Below, piece by piece: positions 10,020 to 36,243 of a DNA stretch of 64,000 nt. The DNA lies in assembly GCA_964016885.1 (NCBI GenBank), contig OZ024753.1, forward strand, positions 3,844,001 through 3,908,000, in the 5' to 3' direction. Position numbers and translations under genes: made by a program. The stretch comes from Eledone cirrhosa. Taxonomy: Eukaryota. Within the stretch, counting starts at the first letter, position 1; each line of letters begins with the position of its first letter. The notes beneath the pieces were generated by a model that worked only from the letters and a program-made list of their open reading frames with translations, had not been told where the DNA came from and did not search any database.

Positions 10020-12049
10020 CACCGGAATAGAGTTGTTGAACAACCATCACAATAGCCACCTGCGCCAGTGTGACGTCATGAGATCTTAACATAATTATGT
10101 GGGTGTCTTGATATGTTGTTAGCTAACGCGACCATAAACAACACAGTTACTAGTAATATAATATGTAATATTATATATTTCGTATATTGTAATTCACTAA
10201 TTACATTTGCCAGGTTGTTATTCTAACATACTATATATATATAGTTTAATTTGCTTATGTTAAATGATTTGTTTTATATATGTTTCAGGTTAAATTTAAA
10301 TTATAAAATAAAGAGTAATACCTAAAGAAAATTATAAAAGTGCAATAAAGTATGAAATTGTTAAAAAGTGGATTAAACAGATTTATTGATACTGGCTTTT
10401 CTCACCCTGAATAAAGGGTAAGTTGTGTTTTAAGCACGAATTTTCATTAGTATGATTAGTGTTCTTTTATATGATTTAAATATGTATTTCCCTTTCCAAT
10501 ATTTATTTTGTATTGCATATCAAATTTATTTTCCAAGACAAGTATTCTGAGGAGATGGATGCTGAGGACTTGGATTACCTTCCTGAGGTACCAGAACAAG
10601 TTCCTCACTTCCCACCTCAAAAAGAAGTCAATGACTTGTTCAGGGATATGGGGATGATCAAGTCCAATGCAGAGCTATTCGTCTCCAGGATGAAGCAGTG
10701 GAACTTGGTCAAGGAGGAAGTGCAGGTGACAAGTCAGAGAAGTCGACACGAACCTTTCTCAGGCTTTTACACTCTTAGGGATGGCCTCTGCTTCTGCCAT
10801 GACGTGCCTGGACTGTTTGACATTATTGGGGTGCCGTTTGTGCCCAAGGAGTGGCGGCTATTCATAGACAGCTCCACTACAAGTTTGAAGGCTGTCCTCC
10901 TCCATAATGGAAACAAGTTCCCAACACTGCCCCTAGCTCATTCATCTGCCCGAAGGAAGATTACTACAGTGTGAAAGTCCTCTTGGAAGCTCTGCAATAC
11001 AACCAGTACAACTGGGAAATCATTGGAAACTTCAGGATGGTGGCTTTCCTGCTTGGCCTCCAAGGAGGCTTTATCAAATTCCAATGCTTCCTCTGCCTTT
11101 GGGACAGCAGAACCACATCTGGCCACTACAAAAAAAAAAGAACTGGGAGCAGCGAAGAGAATTTGTAGTTGGGACCCGGAACGTCATGTGGGAGCCATTG
11201 GTTGATCCTAGGATTGTGCTCATACCGTCACTGCACATTAAGCTGGGGTTGATAAAGCAGTTTGTGAATGCTCTCAACCAAGAATCAGCCACTTTTAAGT
11301 ACCTTCTTGAGTTTTTCCCCAAGTTATCTGAGGCCAAAATCAAAGGTGGAATTTTTGTTGGACCTCAGATAAAGAAGGTGTTTGAGTCTACCGAGTTCTC
11401 CAATAAGCTCAATAGGATTGAGAGAACAGCATGGAACTGTTTCAAGGCAGTTGTTAAGGGCTTCCTTGGCAACTACAGAGCTGAAAACTACCAGCAACTG
11501 GTGCAGGATCTGATAAAGGCTTTTGGCGCCATGGGATGCAGGATGTCGCTTAAACTCCATATGCTGGACGCTCACCTGGAAAAATTCAAGGACAATATGG
11601 GCACCTACTCAGAAGAACAAGGCGAACGATTCCACCAAGATGTGAAAGATATAGAGCGGAGGTACTAGGGCCACTACAATGAAAAAATGATGGGGGACTA
11701 TATCTGAGGGCTAGTGCGGGAATGCGACCTGGACTACAACCGTAAATCCAGGAAATCCATTCATTTCTGACGTGTATAAGTTGCTTTATAAGTGTTATTT
11801 GTTTTTACTTGTTTGCTTTTGATACGCTTGTGTAATAAAATAAATATATACTCTGTTGATTTAATTTTATGAACTGATAAATTTTTAAAAAAAGGTGTTT
11901 TTTTTAAATATGAAAATTTCGAAATATCAAACTCCTGACCACAAACCCAAACTTCTGATGAAATAATAGTGATTTTTTTAATAATAATGGGATAAACAAA
12001 CTATGAAATGACACTTAGAACCGAGGAACCAAAAATATGTTACACGGTG
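10020..12049 (+). mobile_element. CMC-superfamily DNA transposon, Chapaev3-like, ~2030 bp, internally deleted and non-autonomous
   Basis: Termini 5'-CACCG (10020) and CGGTG-3' (12049), flanked by TAA (10017-10019) and TTA (12050-12052). CAC..GTG ends with TWA flanks are characteristic of Chapaev3. Encloses the transposase pseudogene below. Confidence 0.75.
10538..11770 (+). pseudogene. Chapaev3-type DDE transposase pseudogene (2 frameshifts, 2 premature stops)
   Basis: Joined ORFs 10513-10974, 10971-11168 and 11084-11668 give WRLFIDSS..SLKAVLLHNGN, CFLCLWDSR, LHIKLGLIKQFV, KIKGGIFVGPQI, MSLKLHMLDAHL and SEEQGERFHQD. The frame continues RRY*GHYNEKMMGDYI*GLVRE...IHF* to 11770. Frameshifts lie near 10950 and in the A-run at about 11130-11139. 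The N-terminal Cys-rich domain is not visible. Confidence 0.88.
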
Positions 12050-16620: not shown

Positions 16621-17518
16621 GGAGATAGAGAAAGCAATAAAGCACACACACAAACATATATACGTTATTAATTTTATATTATTTGCTCGACGGCTAAGCT
16701 TGACGCGTCTCGAGAGCATATGCATATCTCGTAATATATATATATATATGTAGATATATATATATATATATATATATATAGATATATATATATGATAATT
16801 TTATTTCACCCTCTAGCACAGCTGATACATAGAAGGCCCTATGCATATGTACATACACACATATGTACATACATACATTATACACACACATATATATATA
16901 CATACGCATAATACGTATATACATACATTATACATATGTACACACACACGCACACACTCATATATATATATGTACACATTATATATAGATTATACATATA
17001 CACACATACATTATGCATACATACATTATATGTACATACATACATTATATGTACATACATAATATATATATATATATACATTATATATATATATATCTAA
17101 AGAGAGAGAGACATAGATAGTAATTCATATAGCTATCAACACCTAATTATTATATCCTCACACATCCTCATCCATGAATATGAAGTGAGAAATTATACAG
17201 TCTCATGATACTAATAAACACCGAACGTTTTTAATTACAAATGTTGATGAGTTAGTTTGAACATAAAGATGGAATACACTACGTTCTTCATTTCATGTAT
17301 GTATACATACATAACGGAATTTCAGGCATACACCCATCATACACAAAAACACGTAGAAACGTAAATTGACAGACACATGCTCACACATTCACACGTTTTT
17401 ATGTACTTTTGCATGCACATATTCAAACTGAGAATTAATAATATATATTAATATTAAGAACAAATTCATGCACATAGTTATTATTATTACTATTATTATT
17501 ACTCATATATATATATAT

Positions 17519-18257
17519 ATAAACATAACGATTTACATATACATAAAGTCACAGATATATATATGCCAACCGTTCACGACGTGGCTCACTGAAGAATTAA
17601 TAAATTAAATAATCAGAGCAATATATCATAAATCATGTCCTTAGAATTCTTAGATAAAATATATACAATTTCCTCTCCTAATTAGCATAATTAACCATAT
17701 AAAAATTCAATTAGACCAGGCTATAAGAATAAAGGCTCCTATGAAGAAATATTTGATAAATAACCGAAAGCAGCCTCTTCGCGGTTGACCACAATAGAAT
17801 ATTTACCCATCATTTCAACAGCATGTAGAAACTGACCAAATATACCATCAACCATACACAATTAGGTATAAATTTAAAGTTAGAAAAATGTGAACATACC
17901 GTAATTATATCCCTACCATGGTTTCGTTCGTATTTTGAAATATCCTATTAAGGATAAATCTCAAGTATCGAACTCATCAGGAGACAAACTCAATAGGACA
18001 GTTAATTTTCCAAAGCGATCCCGCCCGAAATAGATTTTAAAAATGGCTAAGAATCGTGACGTGGCAGAGATCAAGTTAGAAATAATGTGATTAGTTGCTT
18101 ATGGCGAGTAGGCTGGTTGCTAGAAAGTGCAGCCCAATATCACCCAAATTGCATCTCAACCCAACGGGAGATTAATAAACAAAGATTTACATATATATAA
18201 AGTCACAGATATATATGTGGAAACCGTTCACGATGTGGCTCAATGAAGAATTAATAA
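17519..18257 (-). mobile_element. Retrozyme / non-autonomous Penelope-like unit: ~654-bp monomer with ~80-bp terminal direct repeat and an internal hammerhead
   Basis: Direct repeat GATTTACATAT.ATAAAGTCACAGATATATAT..AACCGTTCACGA.GTGGCTCA.TGAAGAATTAATAA at 17519-17603 and 18175-18257. Hammerhead at 17908-17986(-). The 3' end on the minus strand runs into (TA)n. No ORF. Confidence 0.65.
17908..17986 (-). ncRNA. Type I hammerhead ribozyme, complete core
   Basis: Minus strand: TGTCTC-CTGATGA-GTTCG[extended hairpin]CGAAC-GAA-ACCATGGT-A-GGGATA. Stem I TGTCTC/GGGATA (two G-U), stem II GTTCG/CGAAC, palindromic stem III ACCATGGT, GUA cleavage triplet. Confidence 0.85.
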
Positions 18258-18455
18258 TCCCCTTCCACCGTTTTTCCTCCCCCCCCCTTGTTTCTAAATG
18301 TCTCTCCACCACTCCCCCACACACCCTGGGAACTCTCTTCCCACCCACTTTTCTCCTGAAGATGGGCTTATGCCCGAACCCCCCCCCCCACTCAAGAGCG
18401 TGAAGCTAATAAACCTTTGTTTGTACTGCCTCTGATTTTGTTCCCGTCCCAGTTT

Positions 18456-18459
<4 letters not shown>
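18258..18459 (+). mobile_element. Penelope-like pLTR-type fragment with a damaged hammerhead motif
   Basis: C/T-rich stretch, then CTGAAGA-T-GGGC-TTAT-GCCC-GAAC (18356-18379; GAAA altered and followed by poly-C), AATAAA at 18408-18413, ending at (TA)n. Confidence 0.55.
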
Positions 18460-18494
<35 letters not shown>

Positions 18495-18994
18495 GGATTG
18501 AGTATATGTGTATGCATACTAGAGAGAGAGAGAGAGACGGGGAGAGATGATATAGGGTATTCTATAACAAAATATCTACTCAATGATATTCTATTTAAGA
18601 GTTAAATTGTCATAAGTAGTCGTAGATACTTCTTCTTTATTTCTTTTCTTCGCCCATTTATTCTTGAAACGGTCGCGGTGGTAGACTCCTCAAGTCGTCC
18701 TACACACAAGCTACTCGTAGGTTGTCTGTTAATTCCTAGCATCACTTAAATATGAGCCATGCAATCACATCTACTAGTTTACTTTTAGCTCAAGCACCTT
18801 TCTGATTATTTTTTCTTGTATGAAGTGAGACATACTTTTGAATGAATGCTACTTTTTTGTTATTCTTTCAGGAATCGCAATATTCTCTTTTTAACAGTCA
18901 CCAATAACTAACAATGGGATTCCAGCGGAGACGTTCCACAACCTCCGCATGCCCATAGCAAGTTTCTTCTCTTTTGATATTTTCCTGCTCCTTA

Positions 18995-20480: not shown

Positions 20481-20528
20481 GAAAAGTGTCAGGACCCCGA
20501 CGGCTGAGTTCCGGCCGTTTCGAACTAT

Positions 20529-20561
<33 letters not shown>

Positions 20562-20563
20562 CA

Positions 20564-20758
20564 TAACTAAGTAGGTGTGGTAAAGAGCCAGATGGACCAT
20601 AACGCACCAGAGTACTCAATAGTTAGGGTAGTAGAGTGGGTAATAGGAACATGTTTAAACCCGACGGCAGAGCTCAAGCGGTCTCGACGGCTATTTCTGG
20701 GGTCCAGAAATAGCCGTGGAAACAGCTTGAGCTCTACCGCCGGGGTTAAACATTTTCC

Positions 20759-20761
<3 letters not shown>
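20564..20761. mobile_element. (TA)n-embedded fold-back element, family A (hammerhead 3'-half palindrome)
   Basis: Inverted repeat 20643-20700 / 20704-20761 with 3-nt loop GGT; homologous along its length to 33398-33602; (TA)n on both sides. An extra fragment lies at 20481-20526. Confidence 0.75.
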
Positions 20762-23460: not shown

Positions 23461-23622
23461 ATGTGGGACCCCGACGGCTGAGCTCCGGCCGTTTCAACAG
23501 CTAGATCCGAACTTAGACGTTGGGGCCGGGCATTTTTCATATTACCTACTCTACAACCCCAAGTATCGAGTACTCTAGTAAGTAATGGTCTGACTGGTTT
23601 TTACCGTCTCCATTCTTATATA
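23461..23622. mobile_element. Family A fold-back element, diverged copy
   Basis: GGGACCCCGACGGCTGAGCTCCGGCCGTTTC followed by TATTACCTACTCTACAACCCCAAGTATCGAGTACTCT, the reverse complement of the family A long arm at 20600-20645. Confidence 0.65.
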
Positions 23623-24323: not shown

Positions 24324-24745
24324 CCGGGAGAGATGACCCCTTAGCCTTTGTCAAGGCAGAATTCTAGGAGAAGGAAAACTCTGATATAACACCTGCAACT
24401 CTGATGGTATCCAATGATGTTGACTTGTTCTTCTTTTTGGTAAATATCATCTTGGTTAAGAGAGTGGGACTGGCTTTGTGCAGTGCCTTTGTTCACTATA
24501 AAAGCTTCACGGCACAGGCATTGCTTTATATCTGGAGATCTCACTGCTCTTGTCGTCACATGGTACCATGGGCCCATGGTACCATGGCACTATGTGTCAA
24601 TAATTGTCACAAGTGTAGTGTTTGTACCAGAGTTTTCAAGTCGCTGGCTGGACTAAAAAGGCACACTCGTTCAGTGCATCGGTAGGGGTTCTCCTACATG
24701 GATATAAAGTAGTGGCCGTACTCGAAAACGAGTTGGCAGCCACCA
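24324..24745 (+). mobile_element. Short bipartite RTE-derived retroposon, copy 1 (5'-truncated)
   Basis: Closely similar to 31073-31622. Contains TCTAGGAGAAGGAAAACTCTGA (RTE 5'-UTR-like) and encodes [22 protein letters not shown] (C2H2 finger typical of RTE ORF C-termini). Ends GGCAGCCACC before a microsatellite. Confidence 0.85.
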
Positions 24746-24812
24746 TGTATGTATGTGGTGTGTCTGTGTGTGTGTGTGCGTGTATGTATGGATGTGTGTG
24801 TATGTGTGTGTG

Positions 24813-24850
<38 letters not shown>

Positions 24851-30136: not shown

Positions 30137-30141
<5 letters not shown>

Positions 30142-30440
30142 TACTTGGGGAGGTCATATTTGCGTAATATTGCCAGAATTAATAACAGAACACACACACT
30201 GTTTGGTTGGTTTTCGCTTCTCGCTGTCTTTTATATCTGCGATCTAACTTACTCGGTCCTCAATGTTGCCATTGACTGACCGACGGTCAAAAATAATACA
30301 GATACAATATAGACACAAACACATATATATAGTTTACATAATTTACATAAATCTTTCGTTGCACATCTGCAACATCGTCAGTGGTGTTATATTCTTTGTT
30401 CCTCCTGTTGTGTTGTATGTCTACGCCATTTTTTATTCAG
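30137..30440 (-). mobile_element. Family B hammerhead-bearing element (single arm)
   Basis: Homologous to 35012-35520. Minus strand 30343-30388 reads CCA-CTGACGA-T-GTTGCA-GATG-TGCAAC-GAAA-GATTT; the stem I 3' side is disrupted by a TTTACATAA duplication. Abuts (TA)n. Confidence 0.7.
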
Positions 30441-30603
30441 TCTGTATATATATATATTTATTTATTTATTTGCTTGTTTGTTTATCTTATTTTATTTTGT
30501 CTTCTTTGCGCATGCGTTTGCGTGTGTGTATAGTGTTATGTGTGCTGTGTGACTAGTGTGTATAGTGTTGTATATAAGAGACTAGTGTGTATAGTGTTGT
30601 ATA

Positions 30604-30879
30604 TAAGAGAGTGGGACTGGCTTTGTGCAGTGCCTTTGCTCACTATAAAAGCTTCACGGCACAGGCATTGCTTTATATCTGGAGATCTCTCTGTACTTGT
30701 CGTTACATGGTACCATGGGCCCAGCACTGTGTGTCAATAATTGTCACGAGTGTAGTGTTTGTACCAGAGTTTTCAAGTCGCTGGCTGGACTAAAAAGCCA
30801 CACTCGTTCAGCGCATCGGTAGGGGTTCTCCTACATGTAAATAAAGTAGTGGCCGTACTCGAAAACAAGTTGGCAGCCA
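30604..30879 (+). mobile_element. Short bipartite RTE-derived retroposon, copy 2 (5'-truncated)
   Basis: Same body and 3' end as 31073-31622; preceded by a 29-bp tandem duplication GACTAGTGTGTATAGTGTTGTATATAAGA. Confidence 0.85.
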
Positions 30880-31072
30880 ATATGTATATATGTATGTGTA
30901 TATATATATATGTATGTGTATGTATATATGTGTGTGTATGTGTATGTATATATATGTGTATGTATATATGTGTATATGTGTATATGTGTGTATGTGTGTA
31001 TATATATATTTATATGTATGCGTATGGATGTGGGTGTGTATATATATATACACACATACCTGTATCTATGCA

Positions 31073-31622
31073 TGGTCGGGTCGTTGGCGACTAAACTGGC
31101 AACCCCACCAAGGTTTCTTGGTCAGGAGGGTGACTTTGGACATCCTGCAGGACTAAAAACAAAACCTGTCAAAGGGCAAAGGAGCTCTTAAGAGTCAATG
31201 GCCATCCAAAATCACCGGCAGAGATGACCCCTTAGCCTTTGTCAAGGCAGAATTCTAGGAGAAGGAAAACTCCTATATAACACCTGCAACCCTGATGGTA
31301 TCCAATGATGTTGACTTGTTCTTCTTTTTGGTAAATATCATCTTGTTTAAGAAAGTGGGACTGGCTTTGTGCAGTGCCTTTGCTCACTATAAAAGCTTCA
31401 CGGCACAGGCATTGCTTTATATCTGGAGATCTCTCTGCACTTGTCACATGGTACCATGGGCCCAGCACTATGTGTCAATAATTGTCACAGGTGTAGTGTT
31501 TGTACCAGAGTTTTCAAGTCGCTGGCTGGACTAAAAAGTCACACTCGTTCAGCGCAACGGTAGGGGTTCTCCTACATGGATATAAAGTAGTGGCCGTACT
31601 CGAAAACGAGTTGGCAGCCACC
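31073..31622 (+). mobile_element. Short bipartite RTE-derived retroposon, copy 3 (longest, ~550 bp)
   Basis: The 5' part (GGTCGTTGGCGACTAAACTGGCAACCCCACC...CTAGGAGAAGGAAAACTC) resembles RTE 5' UTRs. The 3' part is a zinc-finger remnant plus the hairpin ACTCG-AAAA-CGAGT. No RT; flanked by microsatellite. Confidence 0.85.
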
Positions 31623-31645
31623 ATATATGTATATATATATGTTTG

Positions 31646-31714
<69 letters not shown>

Positions 31715-31769
31715 ATGCATATATATATATATATATATATATATTTGTATGCATATATATATTTGTATG

Positions 31770-31810
<41 letters not shown>

Positions 31811-33397: not shown

Positions 33398-33399
<2 letters not shown>

Positions 33400-33597
33400 C
33401 TAAGGAAATGTGGTAAGGAACCAGGTGGATCATAACGCACCAAAGTACTCAATACTTAGGGTAGTAGAGTGGGTAATAGGAACGAGCAGGACCCCGACGG
33501 CTGAGCTCAAGCCGTTTCGATGGCAAATTCTGGACATAATGAGCCCAGAATTAGCCGTCGAAACGGCTTGAGCTCAGCCGTCGGGGTCCTACTCGTT

Positions 33598-33602
<5 letters not shown>
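33398..33602. mobile_element. Family A fold-back element (best-preserved copy)
   Basis: Inverted repeat 33476-33533 / 33545-33602 with 11-nt loop. Each arm carries GAA-ACGGCT-TGAGCTC-AGCCGT-C-GGGGTCC (hammerhead GAAA box, stem III, GUC site), but no CTGANGA box is present. (TA)n on both sides. Confidence 0.8.
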
Positions 33603-33671: not shown

Positions 33672-35061
33672 TGTGCGTTTGTGTGAGTGACTGTTTACAT
33701 AATAAGAATTTAATTTAATCTTATTGGGTTATTGGATAGCATTAGTTAATCGTTTATCCTCCAAATATAAACATTGACGATAAAATGTATCATCAAGCAG
33801 ATTAACCTACCATGGATTAAGCCGCTCAAATCTGACTTTCTGAAATCTCCTGCTTGAAAATTAATATCGGCGAAGAATTTAACGTCTTAAAATCTCTCGA
33901 GTTAATGAAATTTGAACGACTTTTTTATGTTAAAATATGCACGAATAAATCTAGTTTGCTTCTACGTGATCAGTGAACTTGCTAGAAATAGATGCTAAAT
34001 AGTATTTCTGGCCCAAACACGGATGAGGTGTTACGAACCCTGCTGTGCAATCACATGATTTCGTGCACTTTACAATTTACTAAAGACTCTAATTGAGCAA
34101 GTCCTATTGAGATAAAATTGTTAAACGGAGACCATATTATTTGTAGATATAGGCTGAACATTTATTTAATTATAGTACCATTCCTATTTTAATCTCTCTC
34201 AAGTGACACTTATCGGTATAAACTTCAGGATTTCTCTTACACAGACCATTTAGTTGTGAAAACGTAAATTTCTCAGTTTGTAGTGTTGTTACCATATTCT
34301 GTAATCCTGATATAGCTCCAAATTAAATACCTTCAAAGCTACTCATTATTGCAACGCGCCTATGTTCTATTCGAGGTTCGATTAAAAGAAAATATAAATA
34401 ATTTCGTATTCGGAAGACAACGCTGGTCTCGTTCGGTTATGTCTCTTTGCAAAGTAGATTGAATTTCATCTATGATAATTAATGACGTTAGGGTCGTATC
34501 AAATGTACGCGTGGCGATTCGTTTCATTAGTACATGGTAGAAAGTTTGTGCGAACGCTTCGTAGAAAAATATATTCAATAGAAAAGAGAAACAATGAAAT
34601 ACTAGATATACTAGCAAAATAAACTTTCCAGTGTACGGTGTTGTTGCTATCGGATATGAAGAATCACGAGAACAAGTTTCGGAGAGAGAGATAAATGCAT
34701 ATACGTCTGTGTTTATATGGTCAGTCAAGCTGCTACAATCATCTGATCTTATTAAATAAAGATCTACAACTATTTCTGTCCATTCAGGGCTATATATCTT
34801 CGTATGGTATTGTTCAGTTTCTCGGTTTTAATCTGTGTGTGCGTGTGTATATATATATACACACACGCACATATATATATATATATATATTTTAAATAAA
34901 TATACATATATATATATACATATAAATATATACATATATATATATTTACATACATATACATACATATACATACATATACATACATATAAATATATACCCA
35001 TATATACATATATTGTTATACTTGGGGAGGGTCATATTGTTGTAATATTGACAGAAATAAT

Positions 35062-35274
35062 GATTTCTAGTATAGACACAAGACCAGTAATTTGGGGGAG
35101 GGGAAAGTAGATTAAATCGACCCCAGTACATTACTGGTGCTTTATTTTATTGACCTCGTAAGGATGAAAGGCAAAGTTAACATCGGCGAGATTTGAACTC
35201 AGACCGTAAAGGGCTGTAACTCTATGCTGCAAAGCATGATGTCCGACTCTACCGATACTGCCAATCCACCGCCC
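35062..35274 (-). mobile_element. Full-length main-family SINE with 19-bp TSD, inserted into the family B arm
   Basis: TAATATTGACAGAAATAAT at 35043-35061 and 35275-35293; the minus strand starts GGGCGGTGGATTGGCAGTATCGG. Confidence 0.93.
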
Positions 35275-35428
35275 TAATATTGACAGAAATAATAACAGAA
35301 CACATTCACTGTTTGTTTGGTTTCCGCTTCTGTATCTTTTATATCTCCATAGTTAATTTGTTTGGCAATCAATGTTTATCATTGATTGACCAGCGGTTAA
35401 AAATACAGATATAAATATATATATAGTC

Positions 35429-35472
35429 TATCAAAGTCCTTTCGTTGCACATCTGCAACATCATCAGTGGTA
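35429..35472 (-). ncRNA. Minimal type I hammerhead ribozyme
   Basis: Minus strand: TACCA-CTGATGA-T-GTTGCA-GATG-TGCAAC-GAAA-GGAC-TT-TGATA. Perfect 6-bp stem II, 1-bp stem III, stem I with one mismatch. Confidence 0.7.
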
Positions 35473-35924
35473 CTTTTATTTTTCCGCCTGTTGTATTGTA
35501 TGTCTACGCCATTTTTATTTTAAATAAATTAAAATTAAAATATTGCAGATGTGCCACGAAAGAACTTTGATAGACTATATATATATATATATATTTATAG
35601 CTGTATATTTAACCGCTAGTCAATCAATGATAAACATTGATTGCCAAATAAATTAACTATGGAGATATAAATGATACAGAAGCGAAAACCAACCAAATAG
35701 CGAGTTTGTTCGGTTATAATTTCTGGCAATATTACAACAATATGACTCTCACCAAGTATATATTTGTTTCGACACACGATTTCATATAAAAAACTTTGCA
35801 AAATAAATTCATCGCCATATACATATAAATATGTACAAACACATATATATATACACACACACACACATATATATATACACACACACACACATATATATAT
35901 ACACACACACACACATATATATAT

Positions 35925-35995
<71 letters not shown>

Positions 35996-36194
35996 CACAC
36001 ACACACATATATATATACACACACACATATATATATATATATATTTATAACGCCGATGAATTAGTTTTGCGAGGTTTTTTATATGAAATCGTGTGTCGAA
36101 ACAAATATTGTTATACTGGAAAACCAACCAAACAGTGAGTGTGTTCTGATATTAATTCTGGCAATATTACACAAATATGACCCTCCCCAAGTAT

Positions 36195-36243
<49 letters not shown>

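Follow-up and report, generated by a model that had tools for sequence, protein, structure and literature searches.

The closest described systems to the element reported here are the non-LTR retrozymes and the PLEs. Retrozyme mobility in animals is still hypothetical, and published work proposes, rather than demonstrates, a role for PLEs: these are called a 'strong candidate' for mobilising retrozymes in PMC7229834, whilst in a 2026 preprint (bioRxiv 10.64898/2026.07.22.740005), which covers retrozyme units of 51–972 bp, their monomers and their relation to PLE pLTRs, the support consists of co-occurrence and of pLTR similarity in frogs. Retrozymes of coral, mussel and axolotl have been demonstrated to form abundant circles (PMC7229834), and the proposal that a circle is copied for more than one unit dates from 2014 (PMC4209133) and was made again in 2020 (PMC7229834). 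The insertions of PLEs are described as forming partial tandems, as having truncated copies next to them in inverted orientation and as favouring (TA)n (PMC8557442, with the same features in PMC3846280), and a full copy preceded by a 5′-truncated copy is an ordinary PLE partial tandem (PMC8557442). An anole PLE studied in vitro used uncleaved RNA as its main template, began reverse transcription internally and nicked AT-rich DNA, with hammerhead cleavage being dispensable for insertion (PMC11167929). An octopus annotation (PMC13282606) reports 31 recently active PLE families and leaves ribozymes unmentioned in its main text; its repeat library may include the family reported here, of which searches of open-access texts on cephalopod or octopus retrozymes, Penelope elements and hammerheads found no description.

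The window analysed is the whole 64-kb (64,000 nt) stretch of Eledone cirrhosa DNA, in which positions 17519..18257 form a 739-nt stretch made up of one aged copy of an element (family A) plus an 83-nt partial second copy. The full unit (17519..18174, about 654–656 nt, non-coding, sense on the minus strand) stands out both in the alignment and in a read depth far above that of the single-copy flank. Its 3′-terminal 85 nt (17519..17603, minus strand) make up one terminal repeat, and the other is formed by the 5′-truncated 83 nt upstream of the unit (18175..18257, minus strand), a partial tandem resembling a pseudo-LTR. The initial annotation had read these ends as diverged direct repeats with a period of ~654, and the alignment bears this out: the two share 89.4% identity over 85 columns (E 1.6e-26), differ by six substitutions and two single-base gaps, and are offset by 654 in the ungapped part and by 656 at the outer end. 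The architecture is that of a partial-tandem pLTR, a full copy with a 5′-truncated copy before it. An ordinary TSD, already thought too short to account for such a repeat, was rejected as its explanation, as was an independent 80-bp repeat family, since read depth and contigs continue into the unit (for example an X4 contig covering 17590–17701).

At this locus the 3′ end of family A sits directly on a (TA)7 microsatellite, the left target (17506..17519, no strand), an adjacency to (TA)n that had likewise been recorded correctly. Overlooked, however, was a second element in the opposite orientation, family B, of which the 3′-terminal about 200 nt (18258..18459, plus strand) adjoin the family A stretch head-to-head and run into (TA)16, the right target microsatellite (18460..18492, no strand). 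Read from left to right, the locus therefore consists of (TA)7, the family A unit plus 83 nt pointing left, the family B end pointing right and (TA)16; each outer end is a 3′ end in direct contact with (TA)n, and each inner end is a truncated 5′ end. Regional GC is under 50%, and no second copy of family A or family B was found elsewhere in the 64-kb window.

Outside the repeats, the unit contains a predicted type I hammerhead motif (17908..17986, minus strand), identified by descriptor and folding. The core comprises CUGAUGA (17980–17974) and GAAA (17925–17922), the cleavage triplet is GUA, and the predicted cut falls at 17914/17913, the very site that had been named beforehand. Helix I has 6 bp (17986–17981/17913–17908), helix II has 5 bp with G10.1–C11.1 and is extended by a long distal hairpin (17973–17926), and helix III has 2 bp with a palindromic CAUG loop. 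Across the 64 kb our own descriptor recognised a single complete type I motif; it found none when the 31,312-nt microsatellite-masked window was dinucleotide-shuffled 200 times, and none in 3000 shuffles of the unit. Rfam returned no match in the 64 kb at the gathering threshold, and 13 matches at E ≤ 10 within 17400–18500, none of them a hammerhead; the motif is missed probably because of its long helix II. The earlier description of a complete and intact hammerhead holds by descriptor and for the core, but not for the fold: the active fold of this copy, at −16.5 kcal/mol vs. −20.1 and −23.3 kcal/mol, lies 3.6–6.8 kcal/mol above the predicted minimum-energy fold, and formation of helix III is not predicted. 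The copy at this locus is likely inert, judging from its single ribozyme with no second copy, its 2-bp helix III and its drifted helix I. Folded as a circle, the whole unit does modestly better than shuffles (z −2.2, 15 shuffles). We also observed that the sequence upstream of helix I can pair with the catalytic core in a 13-bp, wobble-rich hairpin (17995–17966, minus strand), which, by burying the core, might represent a possible off-state of the ribozyme.

The absence of an ORF, also claimed initially, was confirmed: the longest stop-free frame in the family A stretch spans 46 codons, or 38 counted from an ATG, and Pfam gave no match in any of the six frames with stops read through as X. The six frames contain no RT or endonuclease homology and no RT-GIY-YIG ORF; sequence reading of the copy found no PBS, no PPT, no TG...CA ends and no 4–6-nt TSD, and no tRNA gene was found. 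As neither RT or endonuclease homology nor an autonomous partner was found, it is through architecture alone that this copy is tied to the PLEs. A 20-mer pattern had no match in metagenome contigs, an 18-mer pattern had none in viral contigs, and a text search of File S1 of PMC8557442, which may lack some sequences, gave none for four short motifs. A 16-mer from the hammerhead core matched 120 loci, but 0 of 133 BLAST matches reached 30 nt and these were dismissed as chance.

Other copies of the family were examined in four (X1, X2, X4 and X5) of seven listed sequencing runs, mapped on 17180–18455 at 80% likeness. X1 and X2 represent one sample of organism A, possibly the assembly's own source, X5 is a RAD-seq run of another organism A sample, and X4 is from organism B; the repeat zone 17471–17534 was excluded from the mapping, which hides the exact 3′ ends of other family A copies. 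In X1, the single-copy flank (17180–17470) showed no differences at a depth of 11.7, and the non-repeated part of the unit recruited 339 to 22,884 times the flank depth, a ratio that does not equal copy number. Family A is clearly abundant and multi-copy, and is also present in organism B (X4). The junction between the unit and the repeat (18174/18175) is crossed in other copies: 18 X1 contigs carry another letter at 18175, and 116 X5 reads lie over 18175 and 114 over 18180. Two extra bases follow 18174 in 97 of 117 X5 reads, which have five read starts and hence stem from few loci. As other copies cross the junction, head-to-tail continuity extends beyond this locus, and together with the non-coding and abundant nature of the family and its canonical type I hammerhead, it supports the retrozyme-type identity suggested in the initial annotation. 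No listed contig spans two ribozymes, a full dimer or a longer array, and the locus itself carries one ribozyme. Joints leading from 18255 back to 17603 were rejected as proof of a tandem array, as any monomer yields them.

The reads also show how far this copy has diverged from others of its family. Variant places number 305 in all, of which 40 are shown, and 30 of these 40 lie in family A. At 21 of the 30 the letter in the window is at odds with 85% or more of the depth in both X1 and X2, and 15 of these 21 fall in 571 non-repeated bases, giving a private divergence of at least 2.6%. Such a divergence predicts 4.4 differences between two 83-nt repeats, where six are seen (P 0.27), and the divergence of the terminal repeats fits decay after insertion from identical repeats. 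Within 17519..17603, four letters are private to this copy among the variant places listed, whilst at 17552, 17573 and 18180 both repeats agree against the other copies, the reads being split between the repeats. Three of the variant places shown lie in the hammerhead and none in its core. The U·G pair of helix I (17912) becomes U–A in other copies (97% of X1/X2 depth, 62/147 X5 reads), and the G·U pair of helix II (17939) becomes G–C (92–95%; 148/208), whilst the majority change at 17963 disrupts a distal pair of helix II if it is not matched by an unlisted change in the partner base.

Read depth was 6.9-, 6.9- and 3.4-fold higher 3′ of the cut than 5′ of it in X1, X2 and X4, respectively, whilst the ratio was 1.4 in the RAD run X5, which showed no gradient (rho −0.03). 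The profile is bumpy, not monotonic, and depends on subfamily likeness. From 17912 to 17939, depth drops ~4-fold in X1, 3.4-fold in X2 and 2.5-fold in X4 and rises in X5; after this drop near the cleavage site it recovers by 18070–18128. The gradient gives weak support to a fixed 3′ start with 5′ truncation; a fixed 3′ end, optionally with a tail of 30–40 nt, on AT-rich or (TA)n targets is what a PLE-mobilised element should show. Other family A copies further exhibit opposite-strand joints inside the element (17634/17885 and 17647/17880, head/tail sense not given), and, separately, internal deletions of 54–209 nt, each from one contig or a few reads, one of which (17789 to 17999) takes out the whole hammerhead.

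Family B, the head-to-head partner, is a second abundant family, its stretch at this locus being delimited by depth and loose ends, which place the left boundary to within a few bases. An AATAAA lies near its end. Loose ends at 18273 and 18294 show that other family B copies carry their own upstream sequence, and the loose-end consensus enters TA at an identical 3′ end. The stretch contains a minimal-hammerhead-like core (18356..18379, plus strand), identified from sequence and reads with helix I unconfirmed, and consisting of CUGAAGA, one unpaired base, a 4-bp helix II and GAA. This core is broken in the present copy; other copies complete it as GAAAC-GUC, and 778 X5 reads have a loose end behind 18378. 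No RT was seen in this stretch; that family B is a PLE we infer from the minimal hammerhead form, which has been described for PLEs (PMC4209133). No A/B junction was found among the rows listed for other copies, making the A/B junction a single case.

A third family (C), unrelated to family A, is also associated with (TA)n and was located by sequence comparison at 30137–30445 and 35015–36197, where the descriptor places minimal-hammerhead-like cores at 30381 and 35467 on the minus strand. All four of its 3′ ends fall at one position, three of them directly on (TA)n. Family C also forms a head-to-head pair (35275–35520/35540–35760), an inverted spacer pair (35760–35835/36032–36108) and a 77-nt partial tandem (35684–35760 vs. 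36119–36195), so that a terminal redundancy of ~80 nt is not unique to family A here. One family C copy is split by a SINE-like insert of ~213 nt (35043–35293), which has relatives near 1806, 2690, 9785, 18992, 19204 and 26925; the insertion carries a 19-nt target duplication (35043–35061/35275–35293).

Several other repeats share the window. Palindromic head-to-head insertions in (TA)n were found at 20490–20760, 23463–23599 and 33398–33602, with no hammerhead core by descriptor; this (TA)n-flanked family is possibly another PLE-type 3′ end. Four copies of a 450–550-nt repeat, 84–94% alike (24324–24816, 30604–31058, 31215–31805 and 45211–45754), include a frame with a C2H2 zinc finger, matched by Pfam zf-C2H2 at E 4.7e-5, short of the curated threshold, and are probably LINE 3′ ends. 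Two overlapping frames of 164 and 243 aa at 10480–11668 (plus strand) had no Pfam match at E 0.1, and presumably resemble a frameshifted transposase-type gene.

The family A copy is, in our view, probably a non-LTR retrozyme, that is, a non-autonomous PLE, inserted into (TA)n by the reverse transcriptase and endonuclease of a PLE. In the sequence of events we propose, a PLE endonuclease would nick the (TA)n target, and reverse transcription would begin internally, in AT-rich sequence that lies about 395 nt downstream of where the ribozyme cuts. Copying would then pass the cut site and run on for 344 nt more, finishing the unit and halting 83 nt into the next, which would leave the partial tandem. 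The other side of the break would prime on a family B RNA, of which the last 200 nt would be copied. The two copies would thereby lie head-to-head, each with its 3′ end in (TA)n, and the family A copy would afterwards decay by at least 2.6%. Unless the enzyme jumped between templates, a cleaved linear monomer would yield no more than the first 395 nt, so the template probably exceeded one unit in length. Either an uncleaved tandem transcript or a ligated circle would serve, at nearly even chances that lean slightly towards the transcript. The initial annotation had taken the 1.1-mer as the footprint of a circle copied just over once. Such an origin is possible, but the 1.1-mer is not diagnostic of it, because an uncleaved linear multimer gives the same product (PMC11167929), and comparable forms occur as ordinary PLE partial tandems and as the 77-nt version in family C. 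One locus cannot tell a circle from an uncleaved multimer, and repeated ends alone do not prove a circle; equally, since PLEs begin reverse transcription at one set position inside the RNA, finding the 3′ end fixed would not speak against a circle.

The alternative which survives best, and which we consider possible though a good deal short of probable, is that family A is an internally deleted, 'gutted' autonomous PLE amplified in trans, having retained its pLTR, hammerhead and RT start signal, the ribozyme being a passenger and circular RNA not being abundant. The insertion architecture would look alike, and the dispensability of HHR cleavage for PLE insertion in vitro (PMC11167929) would suit a passenger ribozyme. 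Depth over 17567–17738 is far above the rest, as if this part were common to a larger family, and 367 X5 reads stop at 17709 with mixed continuations. On the other hand, the six frames hold no ORF remnant, the junction between repeat and unit recurs in other copies, and the hammerhead is canonical, with a helix III and no extra base before helix II, whereas metazoan PLEs typically have the minimal form, although a short helix III does occur in some PLEs (PMC4209133).

A more specific version of the retrozyme reading, which we regard as unlikely, is that one PLE RNP carried both templates: a circular retrozyme RNA copied 1.13 times and the 3′ end of a PLE family would have been co-inserted at a (TA)n break. 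If true, this co-insertion would be direct physical evidence that PLE machinery mobilises retrozymes, and the abundance of the family would make it possible to learn from the genome how many turns of the circle were copied and which PLE was the helper.

We give little credence to the idea that a circular monomer served as the cDNA template, with start and end points falling at random round the circle. The copy does cross the cleavage site and exceed one unit, and the coral, mussel and axolotl circles (PMC7229834) provide a precedent, but the 3′ ends of family C nearby are fixed, and the uneven depth, higher on the 3′ side in three of four runs, argues weakly against permutation. Slightly less credible still is an origin at the DNA level, in which recombination or repair relocated part of a 655-bp satellite array, or a later deletion joined two separate insertions: a deletion could bring families A and B head-to-head, and retrozyme arrays grow by unequal crossover according to the discussion of the 2026 preprint, yet the outer 3′ ends on (TA)n with inner truncated 5′ ends form the inverted insertion pattern of PLEs, a pattern that family C repeats nearby. 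Finally, an LTR origin, either as a TRIM-like miniature element whose LTRs are 83 nt long or as an LTR retrozyme of the plant type, would explain a non-coding core between direct terminal repeats, but has almost no standing given a type I hammerhead outside the repeats and the missing TG...CA ends, PBS, PPT and 4–6-nt TSD.

For the non-LTR retrozyme reading that we favour, this single locus contributes one family and one suggestive junction, and no new mechanism. The abundance of the family means that its start site, run-through lengths and chimeric junctions make the questions of the helper and of circle or multimer testable from the assembly, and most worth following are the head-to-head junction of two families and circle vs. 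multimer across the genome.

Our analysis of family A is largely in agreement with what has been described for non-LTR retrozymes (PMC7229834 and the 2026 preprint): it is non-coding and abundant, has GC under 50%, has no LTR, PBS or PPT, carries a canonical type I hammerhead whose 2-bp helix III is closed by a palindromic tetraloop, shows the unit-to-unit junction in other copies, and has a length within the 51–972 bp of the preprint. It differs in that its unit is longer than the invertebrate retrozyme circles of 170–400 nt, in that its helix II is unusually long (48 nt, with an internal loop), and in that the motif has no Rfam match. The locus, being a monomer with one ribozyme and known from DNA alone, falls outside the 'active' class as the preprint draws it. 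With PLE insertions (PMC8557442, PMC3846280 and PMC11167929) it shares a truncated copy joined to a full copy, a head-to-head truncated copy, the (TA)n target, no clear TSD and a hammerhead; however, the endonuclease-bearing PLEs have an RT or GIY-YIG ORF, which family A lacks, and the inverted partner here belongs to a different family, whereas the PLE papers describe a copy of the same element. Similarly, MRC1 of Chlamydomonas (PMC8557442), once mistaken for an LTR element, is non-coding, with pLTRs and head-to-tail insertions, but MRC1-like elements have a known autonomous family with which their 3′ sequence is shared, and are mostly without canonical hammerheads. Plant LTR retrozymes (PMC7761336 and the 2026 preprint) resemble family A in their length of about 600–1000 nt, their hammerhead and their terminal repeats, yet possess a type III ribozyme in both LTRs, a PBS, a PPT and a 4-bp TSD, all absent from family A. 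In its sequence-level features, family A behaves like a candidate PLE-mobilised retrozyme.
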